Shown piece after piece: positions 1 through 10,502 of a DNA stretch of 10,502 nucleotides. The notes beneath the pieces are model-generated. The model saw nothing but the letters and a program-made list of their open reading frames with translations. It was not told the origin of the DNA and searched no databases. The DNA comes from Oligoflexales bacterium (GTDB lineage Bacteria > Bdellovibrionota_B > Oligoflexia > Oligoflexales > Bog-1112). Made by a program: the position numbers and the translations under genes. The first letter of the stretch is position 1. The number at the start of each line of letters is the position of its first letter. The stretch spans positions 1 to 10,502 of the forward strand of contig JBGCDR010000041.1 in the NCBI GenBank assembly GCA_045105515.1, given 5' to 3'.

Positions 1-107
1 TTTAATCATAGCATGTTGATATTACATATATATTATATGGCGGTTTTTTCTGTTTTTACATCATATCTTTTGCGGTTTCAGTGATTATACATGGAAAGTA
101 GGTGTTA

Positions 108-294
108 ATGGGAGCTTAATCTTCGTCTTGCCAGTAATAAACAACACCTAATAGCAAAGCATCTCTTCGCCGAGCTGACTGAATATGGAGTTGAAATCCT
201 CCGGTTTGATGGATCAATTTGGAGAGCTGTACCTGATCAAGAATCTATAAAGAGAATCTTGAAATCATTCAATTTAGCTGCCAATAATTTATAA
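108..294 (+). pseudogene. Possible gene remnant or frameshifted ~62-aa ORF, resembling the C-terminal half of DUF6824 (alternative: D5_N-type primase fragment)
   Basis: Frame 109-294 is open: WELNLRLASNKQHLIAKHLFAELTEYGVEILRFDGSIWRAVPDQESIKRILKSFNLAANNL*. An ATG at 108, preceded by AGGTG, is out of frame by one base. Removing one G from ATGGGAG gives MELNLR.... The LIA..L...L...G...L..D...W..V.D.....R pattern was recognised by eye only. Confidence 0.3.
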
Positions 295-302
295 TTATCC
301 AC

Positions 303-333
303 TTGATTTTAAGTTTGAATAATAGGGTATAAT
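303..333 (+). promoter_or_regulatory. Possible sigma70-type promoter of the HA-domain gene
   Basis: TTGATT (303-308) and a perfect TATAAT (328-333) lie 20 nt before ATG 354. The 19-bp spacer is long and the background is AT-rich. Confidence 0.3.
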
Positions 334-353
334 CAATAAAATAAGGCTTAAAA

Positions 354-971
354 ATGAAGAAACTGATTTTAATTGCATTCGTAATGTTTGAAGGTTTACT
401 ATTAGCTAATAATCAATCTGATACTAGATTCAAATCTTTCCAAATTGATAGCTGGAATACCCGCTATAATGAACTTTTGAAATTTTATCAGATTTATCAG
501 CATGTAAATGTGCCTCACACCTATCCCGCAAACCCTCAACTCGCCAGGTGGGTAAAGCGTCAAAGACGACAGCACAAACTTTTAGAAGAAGGTCATTCAT
601 CGACACTCAGCTTTGAGCGTTTCAATCGACTCAATGATATTGGTTTTATATGGAATTCTCATGAACAGAAGTGGCAAGAGATGTACAGGCAATTAAGAGA
701 TTTTTCCATCAACAACGGTCATTGCAATGTTTCATCCAACAACCCCAATAAAAAACTAGCTACTTGGGTAAAATGCCAACGAAGACAATACAAGCAATTA
801 ATGTCTAAAAAATGCAGCTCTATGAGCCAAAGTCGTATTGAACAACTAGAAAGCATTGGTTTTATCTGGAATGGCAAATTAACCAATAATATCGAAAATC
901 AGCTAACAGAAGACGATTTAAGGTATTTCTCCCATGAGTGGGAAAATGACCCATTAAACTTGTTAGAATGA
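354..971 (+). CDS. Signal-peptide protein with two tandem helicase-associated (HA, PF03457-type) domains and no helicase
   Basis: N-terminus MKKLILIAFVMFEGLLLA|N is Sec-like. Two repeats of W...Y..L..F....H.NV......LA.WVK.QRRQ.K......S......R...L..IGFIWN at aa 34-101 and 107-173 (nt about 453-656 and 672-872). Confidence 0.9.
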   Translation: MKKLILIAFVMFEGLLLANNQSDTRFKSFQIDSWNTRYNELLKFYQIYQHVNVPHTYPANPQLARWVKRQRRQHKLLEEGHSSTLSFERFNRLNDIGFIWNSHEQKWQEMYRQLRDFSINNGHCNVSSNNPNKKLATWVKCQRRQYKQLMSKKCSSMSQSRIEQLESIGFIWNGKLTNNIENQLTEDDLRYFSHEWENDPLNLLE

Positions 972-982
972 ATAGTCTAGCT

Positions 983-1717
983 TTAATTTAAACTAGGTTC
1001 ATTGGGTTCTATATTTCTTGGCATGTCAGAAGGGATGGAAAGAAGATTTTGAGCATAATCTCCTCCTAATTCACCTTCATACCGATAAACATATGCAGAA
1101 TCTACATACATCAACTTACTATTCTGATTTTTAGAAGTAAATTTTAACTTGAATGAAAACTGGATATCGTCTTCGTTACCTGCAAATGGAACGACCAATA
1201 TTTTAGAAGGAAATTGAAGAGATTTCTTTGAAATCTCACCAGCAATATCAACCCAGCCATCAGAACTAGATTCAGGATTCGCTTCAACTTCCATGACAGC
1301 TTCAAAACGATCTGGATTTGCAAGTTCCTGAGACAATTCAAACTCAGAAGCTTCAATATCAATCAATGCAACATTCCTTAAACCACCACTAACATGATAG
1401 AAAATCTTGATCAGTTTCCCTGTCTTATTTTTTATTGATAAAGAAGAACGGAAGGAAACACCCCAAATACTGAATGAACTCTCATTAATCTCGGGAATGA
1501 TATAAGTACCATCTTCATTTACATTTATATTGATTTCATTACTTTTGATCGTTCCACCCCATCCATTTTGAATGGACCAAAAATACTCTACTGCAAGTTC
1601 GCTTGTTTTTAGATTGGTATAGTTGCTAATTTTGTAGTGCCTTGCCGGCTGTTGAAACCTTTCGGCCATTAAGGTGGAAGAAAACACTGAAAGATAAACC
1701 AATAACAAATATCTCAT
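983..1717 (-). CDS. Secreted hypothetical protein, 244 aa, probably beta-rich
   Basis: Start moved from 1777 to ATG 1717, which has a strong AGGAGG site upstream (1724-1729) and begins the signal peptide MRYLLLVYLSVFSSTLMA|E. No family recognised. Confidence 0.8.
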   Translation of the reverse strand: MRYLLLVYLSVFSSTLMAERFQQPARHYKISNYTNLKTSELAVEYFWSIQNGWGGTIKSNEININVNEDGTYIIPEINESSFSIWGVSFRSSLSIKNKTGKLIKIFYHVSGGLRNVALIDIEASEFELSQELANPDRFEAVMEVEANPESSSDGWVDIAGEISKKSLQFPSKILVVPFAGNEDDIQFSFKLKFTSKNQNSKLMYVDSAYVYRYEGELGGDYAQNLLSIPSDMPRNIEPNEPSLN

Positions 1718-1935
1718 ACAATCCCTCCTACATTCTTTTTTTATAATTATAACCTGCCAATATACTAACCGTTTCATCTGTTATTACAACTCATACTCAA
1801 TTATGGCTGATTAATTCACAAACAATGCAGTCTACAAATTTTTTGTGGCGATTTTACTTCTGTTGGCATTGGGAGCTGATATGAGATAGAAGCATGGCTT
1901 TATTAAATCGTTTCAAGATAATTAGGTGGCTCAAA

Positions 1936-2115
1936 TTATCCACTGCTCAAGTATGATATTAGGCCAATAATAATAGGCAGCAAGACAAGAAAAATAATCA
2001 ATGCGATTCGATTTTTATTAGGTTTATCCTTGAGAGCCTTTGGCATTATCTGAGAATTCTGAATGGTTTTCGTGAGAGAAAACTTGTCATTATTCTGGTT
2101 TTCAGGCTTGTTCAT
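1936..2115 (-). CDS. Small 59-aa protein with one C-terminal transmembrane helix (not in the ORF track)
   Basis: ATG 2115 to TAA 1936: MNKPENQNNDKFSLTKTIQNSQIMPKALKDKPNKNRIALIIFLVLLPIIIGLISYLSSG*. Polar and basic N-terminus followed by about 20 hydrophobic residues. Co-oriented with both flanking genes. Ribosome-binding site is weak. Confidence 0.6.
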   Translation of the reverse strand: MNKPENQNNDKFSLTKTIQNSQIMPKALKDKPNKNRIALIIFLVLLPIIIGLISYLSSG

Positions 2116-2138
2116 CTAGAATCTCGGTAGTATTTACT

Positions 2139-2159
2139 TTTGCCAATTAAATTGACAAA
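2139..2159. repeat. Imperfect inverted repeat, possible operator or hairpin
   Basis: TTTGCCAAT-TAA-ATTGACAAA with one mismatch (a G-U pair on the minus strand), between the cyclin stop and the small ORF start. Confidence 0.3.
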
Positions 2160-2237
2160 TTACGAAATAATTATAGCACGATTCTTGATGAAATCCATCG
2201 AAACTCTCATTTGCTCTGCAAGGCAATTGAGACCAAA

Positions 2238-3218
2238 CTAAGCTCCTGTATTTGTTTCGTTAACAAGGTGCAACCGACTTCTCAGCTCAACAATTTCAGT
2301 GGAATCAATTTCAAGACCAAATTCTCTTGCTGCATTTTGGTAAAACTGGTTTTTGCTATCATCATCGAGTTTTAAAGTATAGCGAAATCTCTTATGGTTA
2401 TACTCATAATAGTCAAAGTAAGTACGTTCTATAGCATTAACTAGGGCCGCAAATGCCACTGACGCAGCTGGAAATGTTATAAAAAACGACTCATGCTGCG
2501 ATAACTCTGTAACAAAAAGTGCATTCTGATAAATTGGAGTTCCCAAAGAACTATTAGTATTTATAAGTTTCATAAATCTTAAAAGGTAATCGTCTTCAAG
2601 AGGCGGATTAAGCCAATACTCCAAAGACTCCATGATCTTCAGTTCTTCTTCAGCGATGCGCTTGGAGTCAAACTTTCCCCTGCTAAGTTCAGCCATTGCT
2701 TCAATACCAACCCTCCGAGGTTCCTGAGTTTTGAAAGCAAAATAAAGTGCTGTTGTCGCCGCCAATTGGAATTCTTCTTTAGTGCTAATTTTAGTTTCCG
2801 CCAAATAACGATCCAATATTTTAATGGCAAAAGCTACAACTTTACGATTGATATCAAAGTGGTCCACAACCTGAAAAGCCCACTCACAAATTTTTTCCCT
2901 CCAAAGAGGTGTAATTTGTGACACAGATTCGCCAGAGGAATCACTATCGTAAGTGTCCTCTGGAAAGTAGTATTCAACGAGGTATGTTTCTGATTCCCGC
3001 CTCTGCATAACCTTAATTTGCTCAATCACCATTTCTCGATCAATTTTCATACTCTGCTCTACTGACATTTCCCCATAACCGATTGTATCAGGTTGTTCTG
3101 CTGATATTTCCGCAAAAGCGCTTGTATCAGTCAGTTCTTCTGGCATTTCCCCAAAAGAGTTTGTATTGGTAAAGGTGACACATAAAAAAAGCAGAATTAA
3201 AAAGGATTTCACAAACAC
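2238..3218 (-). CDS. Signal-peptide-bearing eukaryotic-type cyclin (Cyclin_N plus Cyclin_C), similar to diatom-specific cyclins
   Basis: GTG start with GAGG upstream (3229-3232). Signal peptide MFVKSFLILLFLCVTFTNTNSFG|E. Cyclin box motifs: WREKICEW (MRAIL-helix equivalent), LDRYL, FQLAATTALYFAFKTQEP (Lys163), IAEEELKIMESLEYWLNPP (Glu192). Second fold: LFVTELSQHESFFITFPAASVAFAALVNA. Confidence 0.92.
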   Translation of the reverse strand: MFVKSFLILLFLCVTFTNTNSFGEMPEELTDTSAFAEISAEQPDTIGYGEMSVEQSMKIDREMVIEQIKVMQRRESETYLVEYYFPEDTYDSDSSGESVSQITPLWREKICEWAFQVVDHFDINRKVVAFAIKILDRYLAETKISTKEEFQLAATTALYFAFKTQEPRRVGIEAMAELSRGKFDSKRIAEEELKIMESLEYWLNPPLEDDYLLRFMKLINTNSSLGTPIYQNALFVTELSQHESFFITFPAASVAFAALVNAIERTYFDYYEYNHKRFRYTLKLDDDSKNQFYQNAAREFGLEIDSTEIVELRSRLHLVNETNTGA

Positions 3219-3564
3219 TAAACATTTTCCTCAATAGCTAACACACAAATTAAGTAATCAATCCCCCCAGTTCTTACGAAAATATGTGGGTTTTTACAAG
3301 CAATAATTCCTTATGAATCCATAAAAACACCTTGTAACAAGCTATTATTTAACACCTATTCTTCCTATTTAATTCTCAATATAGGCTCTGAACACGACCT
3401 AAGTAGGATTCAAGGATTGTTTTTACCACATCTAAGGCTTACTTTACAATTTCCGTCGTTCACTGTTGATAGGCATGAGAATTCATTATTTAAACTTGCG
3501 AAATGTTAGATAAATGAGGAAGATAAAACCGCCTTTTTTTGAGTTCATTATTGAGGTAATCCTG

Positions 3565-4605
3565 ATGCTCAACTATTTTTTGTTTTTTCTTTTAGCTATT
3601 TTTCCCTTATTTGTATATGGAACAGAACCCGAGAATAAGCCCCCAATACTCGAAATAGCAGATGATCTGACTTTCAGAATTTTCGGCTTTCTCAAAGAAG
3701 AAGAGCTTGTTGATTATAGCGAAAGCAATAAATCCAGTCATAGATTGTTTGGTGCATATGTATCCTCACCTGTAGATAGTCCAAATGGACAGAACTTACG
3801 TAAATCCAGTTATTTTCACATAGTGGTCGAAAATGACCTTTGTTTATTTTTAAATGAATATCTGAAAAAAAAACAGCACACTCCGATATCAACGATTGAA
3901 AATATTGTCGAACTTTCTAAAAAATTTCCCAATATCTTATTAGAAATTTTACTAAAAGCTGATCCAAAAAACCATAAACAAAGCTATGCCCAGCTCGAGT
4001 ATTTCTTCAATACCACTTTTGCTATGGATAGGATAATTTCTCATTTACCTGCATTTAAATCTAACCATGAGAACTTAGCAAGTGTGCTAATTGAATTATT
4101 AACTTGGACACACATTTGGTGGAGTAAGGCAAGAGAAACTGTAATCAAAGAAATAAAAGAACAATTAGACGACCATCTGGCACAAGATATAAGCCTTCAA
4201 ACCTTCGATCAGCTGAATCTCATAATCGAGCAAAGAGCTGGTGGACACATAAGAGACCAATTATGGGATCAAGTTTGGGACAAAGTTGGCAATGAATTAG
4301 ATATATTTATCTGGGATACAGCATTCCAAATTGAGCAACTAAATTCGAACCCTTCTGTGATAACTCTTAAGCACTTCCCTTTTCTCTTAGCGCATAAACA
4401 AGGAACGCTAGACGAGATGGTGAGATCGGCTATGGATTATAGCTTCATGATGTACCAAATGGAAAATATTGTGCTTAGAAATTCGGAATTCTTTCTTGAA
4501 CAACATAGAAATCTAGCTAACACTATTTTATTTAATTTGCCTTCTAAACAGATTAAAGATGCTCTAAGATCCATAATGCCCCCCCAAAACCAAACCATTT
4601 TTTAG
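3565..4605 (+). CDS. Signal-peptide protein with an N-terminal F-box-like motif and an unknown helical C-terminal region
   Basis: Start moved from 3514 to ATG 3565, which has GAGGT at 3553-3557. Signal peptide MLNYFLFFLLAIFPLFVYG|T, then ILEIADDLTFRIFGFLKEEELVDYSESNKSSHRL, which fits the F-box hydrophobic spacing in divergent form. The CDS is solid. The F-box call is about 0.5. Confidence 0.75.
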   Translation: MLNYFLFFLLAIFPLFVYGTEPENKPPILEIADDLTFRIFGFLKEEELVDYSESNKSSHRLFGAYVSSPVDSPNGQNLRKSSYFHIVVENDLCLFLNEYLKKKQHTPISTIENIVELSKKFPNILLEILLKADPKNHKQSYAQLEYFFNTTFAMDRIISHLPAFKSNHENLASVLIELLTWTHIWWSKARETVIKEIKEQLDDHLAQDISLQTFDQLNLIIEQRAGGHIRDQLWDQVWDKVGNELDIFIWDTAFQIEQLNSNPSVITLKHFPFLLAHKQGTLDEMVRSAMDYSFMMYQMENIVLRNSEFFLEQHRNLANTILFNLPSKQIKDALRSIMPPQNQTIF

Positions 4606-4676
4606 TTGAAAGCTATTTACAGGTTATTAGAAATAATACTTTTTCCGTGCAGAAAGAAAATTCTTTGAATAACCCT

Positions 4677-6821
4677 TTATCCAAAGGAGCCTAAATTATT
4701 GCTCCATTTTGTTAGGGCGCTGCTTAGTTTTGACCGGTATATTGGTTTGGACATATAGTCATTCATACCCACTTCAAGGCACTTTTCTTCATCACTAAGC
4801 ATAGCATTTGCTGTCATAGCAATAATAATTGGTTGGCGATTCAAATTTAATTGGCGGATCAACTTTGTGGCTTCATATCCATCCATGACCGGCATCTGAC
4901 AGTCCATAAAAATCAGGTCATAGGTGTTCTGCTCTACCATTGCAACCGCCTGTTTTCCATTAACTGCTGTGTGACAATTAATTTTGAATTTTTCGAGAAA
5001 AGAAAGTGCCAACTCCCGATTAATAAGGCTATCCTCAACCAACAAAACACTTAACTCGGGAAACTTTATTTCTTCTGGATTTTTCATTATTTCATTTGTC
5101 TCTAAATTATCTACAGCATTTAATTCAAGCTCAAAGTAAAAATGACAACCAGTTCCGAGGGTACTCTTTACCTCTATTTTACTAGCAAATAGCTTTGCCA
5201 GTTTTTGAGATATGGACAATCCCAATCCTGTCCCACCAAATTTTCTTGTGGTGGAAGCATCTGCTTGAGTAAAATCTGCAAACACGTTGCTTAGCTCTTT
5301 CTCAGCAATCCCAATTCCGTCATCCTCTACTGCAAAAAAGACTTTATGCTTGCCAGGTCTCAAAGCTCTGCTTTTCACCCGAAGAATTACCAGACCATTC
5401 TGTGTAAACTTTATAGCATTGCTAACCAAATTGGTGAGAATCTGAGCTAAGCGGTTTGAATCTGAGCTCACAAACCTTGGCGTCCCTTCTTCAATTTCTA
5501 GATGAAAGTCTATACTTTTTTCAAGAGCTCGTGCTTCAAACAATTGATAAATAAATTTAAGCTGCTTGTGAAGATCAAATGGCTGCATATCAAGAGACAT
5601 AATTCCTGCATTGATTTTGGATATATCCATAATGTCATTAAGTATTTTCATCATCGTCTCCCCAGATTGGATGATGGTTGACACTATTTTTTCTTGAGCT
5701 GAGTCTAAATTTTGATCTAGGAGTAAATCTGCATTACCTAGTACCCCATTCATAGGAGTACGGATTTCATGACTCATGTTAGCTAAAAACTGAGATTTTG
5801 CTGTACTAGCCTTCACAGCTTCTTCCTTCGCTAATAGTAATTTATGCTCGTTAGCTTTCTTTTCGGTAATATCTTGAATAGTTCCTCTGAGGCTTTTAGA
5901 TCCTTCAGAATCAATAGATACGGTGCCCACGGTTTTTATCCATATATTTTTTCCACTTCTGGTGATAAAGGGAAGATCCAAATTCCAACCTTCATCATAT
6001 TCAATTGCTTTTTGCAGTGCTAAAGTAAAGGTAGGTCTTGCTTCTTCAGCATAAAAACTAACTGCGTCAGCAACATTAATTTTTTCCCCGATTGGTAACT
6101 CATGAATGCGATAAGCTTGGTCACTCCACCAGAATTCTCCGGTTTCGGCTTTAAGGGACCAACCACCAATTTTAGCTAATCTGTTTGTTTCATTTAAGAG
6201 ATTCTCTACCTCTTCTTTTTTACTTAATGTTTCCTTTAGTATCTCTTTCGCATCAATCAAAGTGGATTCAAAATATTCTCGATATTTTTCAAAGTAATAT
6301 GAAATCGCTCCACAAAGAAAGATAGAAAATGCATGAAAGATGGCACCCATAATATCCGAGCTATTAGGTCCTTCAACACTTGCTCCCTCTAGAGCTCTAA
6401 TCAATATAAGATCCATTGCTGCCGCAAACATGCCTATCAATAGGGAAGCGCCAAATGCAAACTGTTTACCGAGAAAAAAAACATAGGCCATTGGCAAAAC
6501 TGAATACCACCAAACAGAAGTCTGACCATCTGAATGAATAAAATATTGATTTACAGGTATTACAATGGATACAAATGAGAGCAACAGAATTGCAGAAGTT
6601 TTATAAGATTGCTTACGCAAAACGAGCCGAACGAAAATAAAATAAGCTAAACATAAAGCAGCGACTACCACGCCTTCAATAGACATATCAAAGACTAGTG
6701 AAACGCATAATGATAGAAATGTTACAATTATGGAAAGATTTAAGGCTGAGGAGAAAATCGCCTCACGAAACTTGTTGTAAGGTTGATTATCTTTAAGTTC
6801 GTGATTCACCATAATATCCAT
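4677..6821 (-). CDS. Membrane hybrid sensor histidine kinase/response regulator (multi-TM, PAS, HisKA, HATPase_c, REC)
   Basis: About 5-6 TM helices. PAS/PAC segment IGGWSL...WWSDQAYRIHEL...GTIQDITEKK. H-box FLANMSHEIRTPMNGV, N-box QILTNLVSNAIKFT, G1 DDGIGI, G2 GGTGLGLSIS. Receiver VEDSLIN, FMDCQMP, AMTANA, SKP. Confidence 0.97.
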   Translation of the reverse strand: MDIMVNHELKDNQPYNKFREAIFSSALNLSIIVTFLSLCVSLVFDMSIEGVVVAALCLAYFIFVRLVLRKQSYKTSAILLLSFVSIVIPVNQYFIHSDGQTSVWWYSVLPMAYVFFLGKQFAFGASLLIGMFAAAMDLILIRALEGASVEGPNSSDIMGAIFHAFSIFLCGAISYYFEKYREYFESTLIDAKEILKETLSKKEEVENLLNETNRLAKIGGWSLKAETGEFWWSDQAYRIHELPIGEKINVADAVSFYAEEARPTFTLALQKAIEYDEGWNLDLPFITRSGKNIWIKTVGTVSIDSEGSKSLRGTIQDITEKKANEHKLLLAKEEAVKASTAKSQFLANMSHEIRTPMNGVLGNADLLLDQNLDSAQEKIVSTIIQSGETMMKILNDIMDISKINAGIMSLDMQPFDLHKQLKFIYQLFEARALEKSIDFHLEIEEGTPRFVSSDSNRLAQILTNLVSNAIKFTQNGLVILRVKSRALRPGKHKVFFAVEDDGIGIAEKELSNVFADFTQADASTTRKFGGTGLGLSISQKLAKLFASKIEVKSTLGTGCHFYFELELNAVDNLETNEIMKNPEEIKFPELSVLLVEDSLINRELALSFLEKFKINCHTAVNGKQAVAMVEQNTYDLIFMDCQMPVMDGYEATKLIRQLNLNRQPIIIAMTANAMLSDEEKCLEVGMNDYMSKPIYRSKLSSALTKWSNNLGSFG

Positions 6822-6844
6822 GTCTTATAAAACCGTTACATCTG

Positions 6845-6873
6845 TCATCGGCGGGGAAAAAAATAAATCTTAG
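6845..6873 (-). promoter_or_regulatory. Putative sigma28 (FliA/SigD) promoter of the hybrid kinase
   Basis: Minus strand reads CTAAG-N16-GCCGATGA, ending 23 nt before ATG 6821. The spacer is slightly long and contains a poly-T run. Confidence 0.55.
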
Positions 6874-7059
6874 TACTTTTATTCCAAACTAAGTACAGAC
6901 GTAATATCAGAAAGCTTAAACCTTTAATATCCTGCTTGCTCTCTTGCTTTCTTGGTAAAATTACCATCAAAGAAACTTAGCGGTGCTTGATAAACAAACA
7001 AGCCATGCCAACTGGATATTTTTTGTAAATAAAACCATATTTTTTGGTGCAATTTAATT

Positions 7060-7109
7060 TTGATGATAAAATATCAACAATATTCATCCTTACAAAGAGG
7101 ATGATTTTT
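7060..7109. repeat. Two adjacent inverted repeats in a divergent intergenic region
   Basis: TTGATGATA-AAA-TATCAACAA (7060-7080, one mismatch) and TCATCCT-N7-AGGATGA (7084-7104) followed by TTTTT. Confidence 0.4.
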
Positions 7110-7284
7110 CATGATATAAACAAAATCCATATCAAATATCTTTAAAATTTGAAAACTCAGTGTAATATTGAAATATGACTCATATAATTCTAGGTAGGGA
7201 CCAAATATGCAGTAAGATATTTAGATTTGCATTCTGCAATTATATCATTGATAGAAAAAAATCGAGGGTAGTAGGGAGTTGAGC

Positions 7285-7629
7285 ATGAAGGTGCTAATGG
7301 TAGATGACGAGGAAGATTTGCTTTATGTTCTTGGAGCAAGTTTTGAAGGCTTGGGAATTGAGTTTGAAACAGCCTCAAATGGCGAAGATGCCCTTGACAG
7401 ATTTGGCTCATTCAAGCCAGATATTGTATTAACTGACTACAATATGCCTAATATGAATGGGGTTGAACTAAGCAAAAAACTTAAAGAAATAAATAAAGAT
7501 ATCAAGATCATCCTATACACAGCCTTTGATTGTGTCGAAAAGGAAGATAGGGGTCTTTTCCATACTGTCTTAGGTAAACCACTCCTGTCTACAGAGGTAA
7601 TTGATGCTATTAAAGAGCTAATCGACTAA
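7285..7629 (+). CDS. Stand-alone response regulator receiver (CheY-like)
   Basis: ATG 7285 has GGAG at 7275-7278. Motifs: VLMVDDE acidic pocket, LTDYNMPNMNG phospho-Asp, LYTA, GKP. No output domain. Confidence 0.95.
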   Translation: MKVLMVDDEEDLLYVLGASFEGLGIEFETASNGEDALDRFGSFKPDIVLTDYNMPNMNGVELSKKLKEINKDIKIILYTAFDCVEKEDRGLFHTVLGKPLLSTEVIDAIKELID

Positions 7630-7656
7630 TTCTCTGCATTTAGATCAAGTGAGGAC

Positions 7657-7687
7657 TAGATAAAACTAGGATTTCTTATTTTATCTA
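7657..7687. terminator. AT-rich hairpin between convergent genes, possible bidirectional terminator
   Basis: TAGATAAAA (7657-7665) pairs with TTTTATCTA (7679-7687), with an inner TAGG/CTTA stem. Confidence 0.35.
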
Positions 7688-8100
7688 CTTATCTTGATAC
7701 ATTCCAACTGCCTTGATCTCAAAAAGTATCTCTGGAGACTGTTGCTCAAGCTTTTATCGGACATCCTGACTAACTTTATTCCCACTTCCTATCCCCAATA
7801 ATTTTTTTGTAGCTTTCCCATTTCGTTTTTGCTACGAGTAATTGACTGGTGATTTCAGAATTTGCAGTTTTTTCTATTCTCATTTTTTTGTCACCATTAA
7901 GCATTGCATCAAGGGATAGGCCAATATAATCCTTAGATTTTTTTGAAAGATCTTTGTTTTTACCCGCATCTGTTTTAGCTGCGATTAGTAAAGTTCTTTG
8001 CCAGCCTTTGTGAAAGCATACGTAGTCTTCCTGCAATGTTAATTGTTTTACCCGATCCTTTAAATCCAGCCTTAAAGGCTGTCTCATAAGATTTAAATTG
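7685..8100 (-). pseudogene. Frameshifted PilJ/NarX-like four-helix sensor domain pseudogene (PF13675-type)
   Basis: Frame A (8046-7996) gives TINIAGRLRMLSQRLAK, a P-box-like motif. A shift near 7990 leads to LLIAAKTDA...LDAMLNGD...SQLLVAKTKWESYKKII. A second shift near 7790 leads to NKVSQDVR*KLEQQSPEILFEIKAVGMYQDK*. No usable start codon precedes the motif. Confidence 0.8.
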
Positions 8101-8175
8101 CCTGATTTTTATCGCGCTGGAAAGGTCGGCGATGCCAGCATAGTATTGTCGATAACAGCTACGATCTACAAAAGC

Positions 8176-10020
8176 TTAGCCAGCCTTTTTATTGCTTAAT
8201 AGATCCATGAATTTTTTCGGAAATGACAATACAAAACAAGTATTTCTATTTTTTTCATCATAGCTTAGAGACCCCTGATGATGCTCCATAATCCCTCTTG
8301 AAAGGCTGAGCCCAAGGCCGGTACCCTTTCCTATTTCTTTAGTGGTATAGAAAGGTTGCATCATCTTCCTCCGGATCTCTTTTGAAATTCCCGATCCACT
8401 ATCCGTGATTCTCAGTTTAAAAAACTCATCTGATTCCTCAAAATCGATTTTAATCCATTTATTGTCTAAACCTTCTATGGCATCAAGAGCATTTCCGAGC
8501 AAGTTCATCAAAACCTGTTCTATTTGCCCAGGCTTACAAGTAATAGAAACATCAATAGGAATATTAGTAATGTAAAGTTCTGCTCCATTTTTTTGAACCT
8601 GGTGCCGACTAAATGATATAGCTTCATCAACCAAGCGAGACATGAAAACAGAAATGAAGGGATCACTGGTAGAATCTCTCGCGAAAGTTTTTAATCCGTC
8701 CACAATTTTAGATATTTTATCTGAGCCTTGCTCTATTATCCCGGCAAATTCTTTGATCTGCTGTTTATCAAAACTATCCTTGGCAACGAGACGGCAAATT
8801 TGACTTGCCCGGGTTTTAATAACTGCTAGTGGTGTATTTATTTCATGAGAAATACCAGCAGACATTTCACCTAATGCTGCCAATTTTGATGATTCAACCA
8901 GTGCTTCTTGAGTAAATTTTAGTTTCTTAGTTCTTTCAATTATCTTTACTTCGAGTTTTTCTTGATAATCACCAAGGCTTTCTAATGAGCTATTTAGCGT
9001 CTCACCAAGGGTGTTGATACCATCTGCAAGTTCATTAAATGCCCGAATATTCGATTTACCTACTTGTTTACTAAAATCATTACTTTTATAAGTATTTAGA
9101 ACATCTACACTACTTTTAACGATGTTTCTAGCTTCTCTATTTAATTTTTCCATGTACTCCTTGAAGAAAGTCCCAATAGATAAATTGGCAATTATGATGG
9201 AAATAATCAAAATTAGGTATAAAGAATCTTGATTAGATTCAGAAAAGTAGAATGAAAGTACAGAATAAGCAATAACTCCTGATGTAAACAATAGAGTATT
9301 AAAAATACTGAAGAAAAATAGAGCCATTAAGGGAATTGGAATGATTGCATACGAAACGGGACCAGAGAGACCTCCCGTATTCTCAATGGCATATACAGCA
9401 CAAACGAACCAAATGATTATATAAAGAGTTATACATAGCTCCAATTTAAAGTGTCTCAAAAGGAACTTAGTTAATAGACTTAATAGAAAAAACACTCCAC
9501 TTGTAATACTCAAATCCTTAGTGTTAAGTGTAAAAAATGCTGCTACGCCTATAAATAGTGAACAAAAAATTCCGATCGTAGCCATTAAATTGAATGCTGC
9601 TTCTTTTTGCTGCTTATAGTAACTTTCTTTTTTTATTGTTTTATTTAAATCATCCTGATTATTAGCTAGCAACCAATCGATTGCCAACTTTCTATTTAAA
9701 AACTTTCTTGTTCTCGACTCTTCCTTTAAAAATTTATAAATTATTCTATTTATCCCTCGCATTGATTTTTTGCAGATAATAACAGCAATACTATCAAATT
9801 TTTTCTCAAGGTTTTCAAGAATTTCATTATATAAACGAGATTTATTCGAGCAATCTATCAGTAAGTTTTTGTAACTCATACCTTTTTTTTTTTGCAGCTC
9901 TGCCAACTGTTTACAAAAATACAAAGGACTAGGAATCATTTCTCCTTTAATAATAACTTCCATAATTCCATTGCTCCAATAACGAACAACAACCCAGTTC
10001 AGCTCATTTTCAGCAAGCAA
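8176..10020 (-). CDS. Membrane sensor histidine kinase (NtrB-like HisKA/HATPase_c) with a possible N-terminal SpoIIAA-like domain
   Basis: About 5-6 TM segments, a HAMP-like linker (FNELADGINTL), a coiled coil, H-box SAGISHEINTPL, N-box [38 protein letters not shown]. The TTG start is uncertain. Confidence 0.93.
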   Translation of the reverse strand: MLAENELNWVVVRYWSNGIMEVIIKGEMIPSPLYFCKQLAELQKKKGMSYKNLLIDCSNKSRLYNEILENLEKKFDSIAVIICKKSMRGINRIIYKFLKEESRTRKFLNRKLAIDWLLANNQDDLNKTIKKESYYKQQKEAAFNLMATIGIFCSLFIGVAAFFTLNTKDLSITSGVFFLLSLLTKFLLRHFKLELCITLYIIIWFVCAVYAIENTGGLSGPVSYAIIPIPLMALFFFSIFNTLLFTSGVIAYSVLSFYFSESNQDSLYLILIISIIIANLSIGTFFKEYMEKLNREARNIVKSSVDVLNTYKSNDFSKQVGKSNIRAFNELADGINTLGETLNSSLESLGDYQEKLEVKIIERTKKLKFTQEALVESSKLAALGEMSAGISHEINTPLAVIKTRASQICRLVAKDSFDKQQIKEFAGIIEQGSDKISKIVDGLKTFARDSTSDPFISVFMSRLVDEAISFSRHQVQKNGAELYITNIPIDVSITCKPGQIEQVLMNLLGNALDAIEGLDNKWIKIDFEESDEFFKLRITDSGSGISKEIRRKMMQPFYTTKEIGKGTGLGLSLSRGIMEHHQGSLSYDEKNRNTCFVLSFPKKFMDLLSNKKAG

Positions 10021-10080
10021 TTTAATGGCATTAACTCCCGATAAAAAAGAATAAACTCAACACGCACACATTCTTCTGTA

Positions 10081-10107
10081 TTATCGGCCACTAAGTTTTG
10101 AACTTGA
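10081..10107 (-). promoter_or_regulatory. Sigma28 (FliA) promoter of the sensor kinase
   Basis: Minus strand reads TCAAG-N14-GCCGATAA, with an exact -10 consensus and canonical spacing, 60 nt before the ORF start. Confidence 0.75.
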
Positions 10108-10173
10108 TTAAATAGTAAGAATTGAGCCTGGAAAACAATTATTAAACTCAATTGTAGTAAGATATGACTAATA

Positions 10174-10395
10174 TTAGGCTGCTTGGTTTTTTGGCAAACT
10201 TAAGATAAAAGTAGTGTATTTTGCGGAGCTATCTAGTTGTAGACTCCCTCCATGCATTTCAGCAATTCCTTTTGAAAGGCTCAAGCCCAGACCAGTCCCA
10301 ACCCCCACATCCTTGGTCGTAAAAAATGGCTGCAAAATTTTATCCTTTATTTCATCTGGAATACCCAGGGCTGATTCAAATAAGATTTTTTCCAA
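10174..10395 (-). pseudogene. Truncated histidine kinase ATPase C-terminal fragment
   Basis: [40 protein letters not shown] keeps the F and G2 boxes. G1 is degenerate (ESALGI instead of DSGxGI), H and N boxes are absent, and an in-frame stop lies about 10 codons upstream. Confidence 0.8.
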
Positions 10396-10502
10396 TTTTT
10401 CATTAAATAGGTCAGAAAAATTCTAAGCCGCAGTACCAAAAGTGACTAGATAAAAAAAATATAGGAAGAAAAAACTTAAAAAAAATGGCTCACTTTTATT
10501 AA

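Follow-up and report, generated by a model that had tools for sequence, protein, structure and literature searches.

The window analysed here, a stretch of 10,502 bases, is the entire contig C41 of a metagenome-assembled Oligoflexales genome (assembly G000). Its left 4.6 kb carries four long genes, which encode a cyclin, a protein with two HA repeats and two further proteins named after their open reading frames (ORFs), ORF2 and ORF4. We lean, with slightly more than even confidence, towards the view that these genes encode exported and partly eukaryote-derived proteins of a bacterium that lives within, or preys upon, a stramenopile alga, with export, delivery and the host being presumed. This view is carried by a two-fold cyclin and an HA protein with diatom affinity, both encoded in DNA of bacterial composition and both preceded by a hydrophobic leader that, from the coverage of the alignments, lies outside the region homologous to diatom proteins. 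The original prediction had described the four genes as a candidate effector island directed at a host, with secreted cyclin, HA-domain and F-box-like proteins of eukaryotic type.

Results

The cyclin and its diatom relatives

The cyclin consists of a leader (residues 1-23), an acidic linker, a Cyclin_N domain (residues 97-203, bases 2610-2930) and a second cyclin fold. The Pfam PF00134 profile, whose cut-off is 23 bits, was matched at 63.1 bits (E value in Table 1) and, when the whole genome was searched, at 65.4 bits; no match to Pfam Cyclin_C was found in the window cyclin. Both folds are present, because the Atlas model of the protein (predicted template modelling score, pTM, 0.75) aligns over residues 48-326 with clusters of full-length cyclins at template modelling (TM) scores of 0.75 and 0.71, predicted models standing on both sides of this comparison. 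The cyclin gene of the original prediction is therefore real. Among solved structures, human cyclin B1 is the closest to it (E 1.8e-8, 37 bits). In that alignment the Lys of the helix-3 motif and the Glu of helix 5, which contact the cyclin-dependent kinase (CDK) in cyclins A and B, as in cyclin A-CDK2, lie opposite a Lys and a Glu of the query.

A search of 5.8 billion proteins returned 110 matches, one of them the protein itself. The best reached about 139 bits at 36-45% identity, as against the 37 bits to human cyclin B1, and most of the best matches carry Cyclin_N plus Cyclin_C. The organism is known for 23 of the 109 non-self matches and is a diatom in all 23; of these, 14 are named, one has a partial name ('Thalas...') and eight were traced through cluster members or taxids, while three more matches have only transcript identifiers. 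The genera include Thalassiosira, Skeletonema, Cyclotella, Chaetoceros, Proboscia, Asterionellopsis, Pseudo-nitzschia, Cylindrotheca, Epithemia and others. In a FastTree phylogeny of 114 rows, the window cyclin grouped with a bacterial cyclin from a relative, G050 (support 84), in a polytomy with diatom clades. Based on these comparisons, the cyclin appears to belong with the expanded diatom cyclin family, and its donor would have been a diatom or another stramenopile.

Close copies of the gene are scarce. A second cyclin of the same genome, on contig C317, is distant (26% identity). The pattern WREKIC[EH]W gave six matches among the GTDB species genomes, a set from which this genome itself may have been excluded, and none of the six was a relative; in metagenome contigs of the Joint Genome Institute (JGI), none of 124 pattern matches was a cyclin relative.

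The HA protein and its partner ORF2

The HA protein has a hydrophobic leader (residues 1-19) followed by two HA repeats (PF03457), at about 447-647 and 660-863. Judged by the curated Pfam cut-off, with repeats of about 64 residues, it scored 129.4 bits against 28.4, and the individual repeats scored 70.7 and 65.3 bits. The search returned 457 matches at E <= 0.001. Among the best 120 of these are a paralogue on contig C282 (87% identity) and one metagenomic protein (64%), the rest being 49-59% identical over 72-85% of the query. An organism is recorded for seven of the best 120, and all seven are diatoms (Ditylum, Fragilaria, Astrosyne twice, Extubocellulus, Bacillariaceae sp. and Nitzschia).

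Two trees, one from FastTree (122 rows, 147 columns) and one from an IQ-TREE mixture model (43 rows), were rooted on a distant HA paralogue on contig C188. In both, the three bacterial HA sequences form a clade (support 99), which is part of a 15-row clade (99), itself contained in one of 25 rows (99) to which Fragilaria, Astrosyne and Extubocellulus belong; a further Astrosyne copy, Nitzschia, Bacillariaceae sp. and Ditylum stand outside the latter. Because named diatoms occur on both sides of a well-supported branch, the bacterial HA clade is nested among diatoms. The HA-domain protein of the original prediction, and the diatom affinity proposed for it, are both borne out.

The HA gene and ORF2 are duplicated together on contig C282 (11511-13328), over 1,820 bases at 89% nucleotide identity and 87% protein identity for each of the two. 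The ratio of nonsynonymous to synonymous substitution rates (dN/dS) between the copies is 0.22 for HA and 0.17 for ORF2, at a dS of about 0.3, and both genes are therefore under purifying selection. On C282 the pair is followed by two ORFs of 124 amino acids, and it represents there either a paralogue or the copy of a co-binned strain.

An exhaustive search with ORF2 gave 26 matches at E <= 0.001. Three of the five non-paralogous matches scanned (P0234, P0235 and P0247) are long PKD_6 repeat proteins that align with ORF2 residues ~33-80, and two of the three end in a type-IX sorting tail. By these relatives, ORF2 is a predicted bacterial-type, surface-type immunoglobulin (Ig)-like protein and not a eukaryote-like one. 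No ORF2 relative was found among 258 pattern matches in JGI metagenome contigs. With ORF2 bacterial in type and ORF4 outside any Pfam family, a eukaryotic type is established for only two of the four long genes.

A CDK homologue and a kinase-cyclin fusion in the same lineage

The genome that contains the window also encodes a leader-bearing kinase of 335 amino acids (C106:8124-9131, + strand; locus L112:1417-2424). Among proteins of solved structure, CDK3, CDK2 and CDK1 match it best (E 7e-44 to 2e-39). The protein keeps the glycine loop, the catalytic Lys, the DFG motif and a CDK-type substrate-binding segment; its HRD motif reads HGD, the T-loop Thr is replaced by His, and the PSTAIRE helix is altered. 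No match to it at E <= 1e-35 was found in the 94 other genomes of the order, a threshold that may exclude the following fusion. In G010, a genome of the same family, a gene at L003:469-2124 (+ strand) encodes a protein of 551 amino acids in which a CDK-like protein kinase and Cyclin_N follow a leader. The kinase part resembles CDK2-type kinases most (E 3e-42), and the gene adjoins one for a histidine kinase. Kinase-cyclin fusions exist in stramenopiles as well, because one oomycete cluster of the Atlas has Pkinase plus Cyclin_N. The premise of the original prediction that CDKs do not exist in bacteria is contradicted by these two proteins, and a host CDK is not necessarily the target of the window cyclin, because this lineage has its own CDK homologue.

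The other cyclins in relatives are diverse, being of Cyclin_N or PHO80-like type, and the leader script described below flags four of the six other cyclin ORFs. Leader-bearing cyclins of the relatives' own stand beside histidine kinases, and G005, another genome of the family, has three PHO80-like cyclins (PF08613) with hydrophobic leaders, at L004:1447-2460, L007:1441-2874 and L007:2910-3290 (all - strand), two of them adjacent. In the genome under study, a lipoprotein-type kinase (218-1540), a receiver gene (3412-3753) and the second leader-bearing cyclin (4203-4868) lie within 5 kb on contig C317 (C317:218-4868), this receiver being a 51%-identical paralogue of the one in the window (7279-7629). 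There are 22 Pkinase matches in the genome. In addition, a leader-bearing protein at C250:1796-2812 (+ strand) has an F-box-like domain at 26.2 bits, above the Pfam cut-off, and behind it some five tandem repeats, each about 45 residues long.

Six full-length genes of the TLC/NTT (ATP/ADP translocase) family were found, on contigs C74, C181, C166, C40, C393 and C190 (E 6e-116 to 3e-203), and none in the 14 control genomes. An FD111-like Oligoflexales bacterium has been described as attaching to, entering, multiplying inside and emptying Nannochloropsis, leaving ghost cells (PMC12865303). A host-dependent or intracellular lifestyle is suggested, indirectly, by the six TLC/NTT genes, a massive repeat expansion and this intracellular precedent within the Oligoflexales.

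ORF4 and the F-box question

An F-box-like motif occurs in ORF4 at about 3646-3768, as part of an N-terminal motif common to four members of its family. Neither ORF4 nor its closest homologue gave a match to the Pfam F-box families (PF00646 / PF12937) even at E <= 10. The homologue in G050 matches F-box-like at E 0.013 and 15.7 bits, below the cut-off of 24.3, and ORF4 has one close homologue, at 47% identity.

The AlphaFold model of ORF4 (predicted local distance difference test, pLDDT, 81) has a confident, long helical C-terminal domain and a poorly modelled N-terminus. Three short helices appear at mature residues 14-47, where pLDDT is only 33-61, and the N-terminus modelled alone reached a pLDDT of 46. 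Atlas neighbours of residues 37-110 are mostly F-box clusters, all of them under the naming bar (feature score 0.89, 127 shared features, TM 0.51-0.61). Against the PDB, Foldseek gave no fold match at E <= 0.001, and the wide VIA-align search gave a best Z of 4.8, to generic helical bundles. These are weak leads, and they leave the F-box proposed for ORF4 unproven; a lineage-specific helical protein with a degenerate F-box is possible.

Members of the ORF4 family (window 3565-4605; C293:349-1485; L014:3-578 with L014:704-1057) share the helical domain and repeated W-D-Q-V motifs. Such genes lie near single-domain receiver genes at three places, which may be chance because the genome has 63 receiver matches.

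Starts and leaders

The start of ORF2 is most likely at the internal Met21 (1717) and that of ORF4 at Met18 (3565), as judged from their upstream sequences: GGAGGG stands 5 nt before the ATG of ORF2 and GAGG 8 nt before that of ORF4, for which the public gene call has the same start. The cyclin has GAGGA 9 nt upstream of its GTG at 3218, and its frame opens just four codons further upstream, whereas the alternative start at Met25 has a G-rich site merely 1-2 nt away. Only AAGG precedes the HA gene at 354. The three clear Shine-Dalgarno sites claimed at the outset are thus present.

At the chosen starts, each of the four proteins has a hydrophobic N-terminal leader followed by small residues. 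Inspection and a crude script were used for detection. By inspection all four fit, in outline, the Sec-type pattern (charged n-region, hydrophobic h-region, small residues at -3/-1, ~15-35 residues), and the script flagged ORF2, the cyclin and ORF4 but left HA unflagged. The signal peptides originally predicted on all four proteins are accordingly putative, with an outline fit by inspection and a flag from the script for three of the four, and that of the cyclin further depends on its GTG start. What is unusual is the domains joined to the leaders, not the leaders as such.

Bacterial origin and continuity of the window

The assembly comprises 6,286,444 bases in 461 contigs, with a completeness of 90.9% and a contamination of 4.8%. 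Its RpoB and L10 proteins cluster, at 90% identity or more, with NCBI proteins that bear the label 'Oligoflexales bacterium'; no small-subunit ribosomal RNA gene was found in the assembly. The guanine-plus-cytosine (GC) content along the window is 29-39%, with no step from the left to the right part. In tetranucleotide distance to the genome mean, the left 4.6 kb lies at the 71st percentile of 1122 genome chunks and the right part at the 69th. GC at third codon positions (GC3) is 0.28-0.36 in the four left genes and 0.28-0.36 in the kinase genes.

In each of three sequencing runs, a single unbranched contig of 10,281 bases spans 111-10391 with zero differences, at a flat depth over the contig body of 14.5, 37.3 and 46. 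The runs belong to one study, were assembled separately and may be the source of the assembly. Because this contig covers 111-10391 in every case, the junction at 4605-4677 is bridged in three per-run assemblies. The window is genuine, contiguous bacterial DNA and the contig is not chimeric.

Both ends of the contig consist of multicopy repeats (Table 1), with a depth 50-200 times that of the contig body. Depth at the left end is 700-2570x, against 14.5-46x in the body, and at the right end 1150-10765x; among the other right-end matches listed, 11 of 11 are at contig ends. The left-end repeat is probably an insertion sequence that breaks the assembly, and the terminal repeat element, itself unassembled, probably explains the 461 contigs.

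Gene neighbourhood

The four genes adjoin ordinary two-component genes of bacterial type, as originally described (Table 1). The hybrid kinase is best matched, at 35-42% identity, by kinases that belong to the same bacterial family and align as full-length proteins. No coding sequence was found at 108-353 and no Rfam family in the window, and promoter-like and terminator-like sites in the window were no more frequent than in shuffles.

Table 1. Annotated features of the 10,502-base window.
Feature	Position	Strand	Length	Remarks
Multicopy repeat end	1-140			~135-140 bases at 96.7-100% identity on ~30 other contigs, nearly all at contig ends
HA protein gene	354-971	+	205 aa	Pfam two HA repeats, E 6.2e-38
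ORF2	983-1777 (open frame), likely start 1717	-	264 aa open, 244 aa from 1717	No Pfam family
Cyclin gene	2238-3218	-	326 aa	GTG start; Pfam Cyclin_N, E 2.8e-17
ORF4	3514-4605 (open frame), likely start 3565	+	363 aa open, 346 aa from 3565	No Pfam family
Hybrid histidine kinase	4677-6821	-	714 aa	Pfam PAS, HisKA, HATPase_c, receiver
Single-domain response regulator	7279-7629	+	116 aa	Pfam Response_reg, E 1.9e-19
ORF	7776-8087	-	103 aa	No Pfam match
Membrane histidine kinase	8176-10020	-	614 aa	Pfam HisKA and HATPase_c
Histidine-kinase ATPase-domain fragment	10174-10395	-	73 aa	57% identity with the end of the adjacent kinase; truncated by the terminal repeat
Second multicopy repeat end	10360-10502			45 matches including its own, on ~44 other contigs

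The four genes differ in their distributions. Profile searches found Cyclin_N in five of 61 relatives and in none of the 14 control genomes; for HA the counts are four among the 95 genomes of the order, zero among the family's 15 other genomes and zero among the 14 controls; and the ORF4 family occurs in three of the 95 genomes of the order, namely this one (with several paralogues), its congener and G050. These counts agree with the view in the original prediction that the genes are not part of a broad, vertically inherited bacterial complement.

That the four genes form one transferable island was considered and rejected: the HA and ORF2 pair was duplicated by itself, the cyclin and ORF4 are distributed separately, and a multicopy repeat bounds the contig. 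The effector island of the original prediction is instead a loose grouping of genes for presumably exported proteins, set in a genome rich in repeats, and neither an operon nor a co-inherited island.

Discussion

The reading we prefer can be set out as a sequence of steps. The cyclin, with its two folds, and the protein with two HA repeats would have been captured from diatoms or from close stramenopile relatives. The captured genes would then have drifted to bacterial composition, each gaining a bacterial leader ahead of its homologous part. While the bacterium lives inside, or preys upon, a eukaryotic and probably stramenopile alga, the proteins would be exported and would reach the host cytoplasm or nucleus. 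There the cyclin would bind and activate a CDK, either that of the host or an exported CDK-like kinase of the bacterium's own, and the HA protein would bind nucleic acid. We infer, then, that the leaders drive export, that the proteins enter a eukaryotic cell, that this cell is a stramenopile alga and that the cyclin acts through a CDK.

As a mechanism, the targeting of a host CDK is no better than the export of the cyclin together with a CDK of the bacterium's own, as a self-contained pair. A more far-reaching version of the latter, which we regard as possible but rather doubtful, is that an alga-invading member of the Oligoflexales exports a full cyclin-CDK engine of stramenopile derivation, made up of the diatom-type cyclin and the bacterium's own CDK homologue and fused into one protein in a relative, which would force or stall the host cell cycle from inside. 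Having lost the RD motif and the T-loop threonine, the kinase of such an engine would be independent of the activating kinase of the host.

A number of observations weigh against the preferred reading. Its main weakness is that a Sec-type leader explains passage across the first membrane only, into the periplasm, and a further route across the outer membrane and into a host would be needed; classical effectors use type III, type IV or type VI secretion systems, without Sec leaders. The leaders are also imperfect. That of the HA protein has a Glu in its hydrophobic core and that of ORF4 has no positive charge, and the cyclin has a leader only when read from the GTG at 3218; the public gene call, of 302 amino acids from Met25, lacks it. 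By themselves leaders are unexceptional here, because the crude script flags leader-like N-termini in 1546 of the 4335 ORFs of at least 150 amino acids in this genome (35.7%), and runs of four flagged ORFs occupy 124 of 3080 four-ORF windows (4%).

Further points concern the origin of the genes and the sample. The cyclin is only ~36-45% identical to diatom cyclins, and in an IQ-TREE mixture-model tree of 42 rows, rooted on the second cyclin of the same genome, it fell outside all sampled diatom rows (support 85, with long-branch warnings). Neither this tree nor the larger one held non-diatom eukaryotic cyclins or a labelled diatom-specific cyclin (dsCYC), and because the former were missing, the trees do not establish a diatom donor. 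The diatom-like character originally proposed for the cyclin therefore stands as regards its 23 diatom matches out of 23, but not as regards nesting, the protein being nested in a diatom clade in neither tree. The genome profile search gave no F-box match in ORF4 at E <= 0.1. Neither the HA gene nor a close copy of the window cyclin occurs in the same-genus genome, the runs that contain this contig are labelled 'plant metagenome' and not diatom, and the assembly may mix strains, because its contamination is 4.8% and its size 6.3 Mb, compared with 4.6 Mb in the congener. The host-directed toolkit of the original prediction thus survives in part: the cyclin and the HA protein are of eukaryotic type and patchily distributed, but ORF2 is bacterial, the F-box is unproven and the premise that a CDK could come only from a host is wrong.

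The proteins might be exported and act in the periplasm, at the cell surface or in the medium, with the captured domains as binding scaffolds and no role inside a host. We consider this unlikely, although it has real points in its favour: a Sec-type leader by itself would place a protein in the periplasm or at the surface, about one third of the ORFs in the genome look exported, and ORF2, the partner of HA in both copies, is of a surface-type, Ig-like kind. Against this, both folds of the cyclin are retained, as are its Lys and Glu at the CDK-contact positions, kinases require ATP, which is scarce outside cells, and the genome has signs of an intracellular lifestyle in its TLC/NTT genes; we also know of no extracytoplasmic partners of cyclins, CDK-like kinases or F-box-like domains. 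Less probable still, and in our judgement quite improbable, is a purely internal role, in which the leaders would be membrane anchors or start-codon artefacts and the cyclin would partner the bacterium's own CDK-like kinase within the bacterial cell, perhaps to time a complex cycle of growth and division. The public call of the cyclin at Met25, the 22 Pkinase matches with a CDK homologue among them, the kinase-cyclin fusion in a relative and the presence of cyclin or ORF4-family genes near receiver genes at four places all fit such a role. However, leader-like N-termini are also found on the CDK-like kinase, on the fusion and on four of the six other cyclins, the spacing of the G-rich site at Met25 (1-2 nt) compares poorly with that of GAGGA before the GTG (9 nt), and a distribution that is patchy within the family is ill-suited to a core cell-cycle function.

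The genes could also be recently transferred, selectively neutral passengers without function in a repeat-rich genome. Multicopy repeats do bound the contig, the genes are missing from the same-genus genome, and searches of the GTDB species set and the JGI metagenomes gave no close copies; yet the frames are all intact and have ribosome-binding sites, composition and GC3 have converged on those of the genome, dN/dS is ~0.2 for HA and ORF2, and leaders have been added to the captured domains, which together make this explanation very improbable. We give the least credence, close to none, to the idea that the left 4.6 kb is eukaryotic or viral DNA mis-assembled onto bacterial DNA, or that the contig was mis-binned. 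The assembly is derived from a metagenome with a contamination of 4.8%, and the best matches of two genes are eukaryotic. These points are outweighed by the unbranched 10,281-base contig with flat depth and zero differences in all three runs (with the reservation that these may be the source sample), by left-part tetranucleotides, GC and GC3 that match the genome and the kinase genes, by bacterial ribosome-binding sites, by paralogues among bacterial genes on three other contigs, and by independent relatives that have leader-bearing cyclins of their own beside histidine kinases.

The preferred reading, that of captured proteins exported towards an algal host, has counterparts among known systems. 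Diatoms have an expanded cyclin family that includes diatom-specific cyclins (dsCYC; Huysman et al. 2010, PMC2872877). Diatom cyclins are by far the nearest relatives of the window cyclin and share both folds with it; the window cyclin differs in being encoded by a bacterial gene of bacterial composition, in its leader and acidic linker, and in its position outside the sampled diatom rows in the better tree. The FD111-like bacterium introduced above belongs to the same order and replicates inside a stramenopile alga, a setting that would bring exported proteins into contact with host cytoplasm; its host is a eustigmatophyte and not a diatom, and the likeness to the present genome is drawn at the level of the order.

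Among the solved-structure matches of the window cyclin are herpesvirus v-cyclin chains (1g3n, 1bu2, 1jow and 1f5q). The v-cyclins bind host CDKs and are likewise parasite-encoded cyclins captured from a host lineage. They are, however, expressed inside the host cell, whereas the bacterial cyclin would need export, has an algal source and belongs to a bacterium with a CDK homologue of its own. Eukaryote-like effectors include the F-box and U-box proteins and LegK kinases of Legionella and the F-box proteins of Amoebophilus and chlamydiae. In those bacteria, too, transferred eukaryotic domains are found in a host-dependent bacterium, and kinase and F-box-like proteins also occur in the present genome. 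In contrast to the leader-bearing proteins described here, such effectors lack Sec leaders and are delivered by type IV or type III systems, and we know of no cyclin or CDK homologue among them. Bacterial cyclomodulins, such as Cif (a deamidase) and cytolethal distending toxin (a nuclease), resemble the proposed system in that they are bacterial proteins acting on the host cell cycle, but they are enzymes and, unlike the window cyclin, not homologues of the cell-cycle engine.

That intracellular bacteria acquire genes of their hosts is well established. For cyclins and CDKs, which form the core of the cell-cycle engine of eukaryotes, we are aware of examples from viruses and not from bacteria. 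A literature search found nothing relevant on bacterial cyclins, bacterial CDKs or secreted cyclins, with most subscription journals outside the search, and nothing useful linking Cyclin_N (PF00134) to bacterial effectors or HA domains to diatoms. Within the known kind of captured eukaryote-like proteins, we are thus not aware of a report of the present content, namely a cyclin, a CDK homologue, their fusion and Sec-type leaders, in the Bdellovibrionota.

In summary, the window cyclin, the CDK-like kinase and the fusion protein offer concrete proteins for testing. If the exported cyclin-CDK engine were confirmed, they would be the first bacterial cyclin and CDK effectors. If the broader reading is true, the proteins described here would represent a new class of bacterial host-manipulation proteins, and genes would have passed from diatoms into bacteria, opposite to the transfer that is normally considered. 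Diatoms or related algae would then be hosts of an uncultured marine lineage, which would bear on the mortality of phytoplankton.

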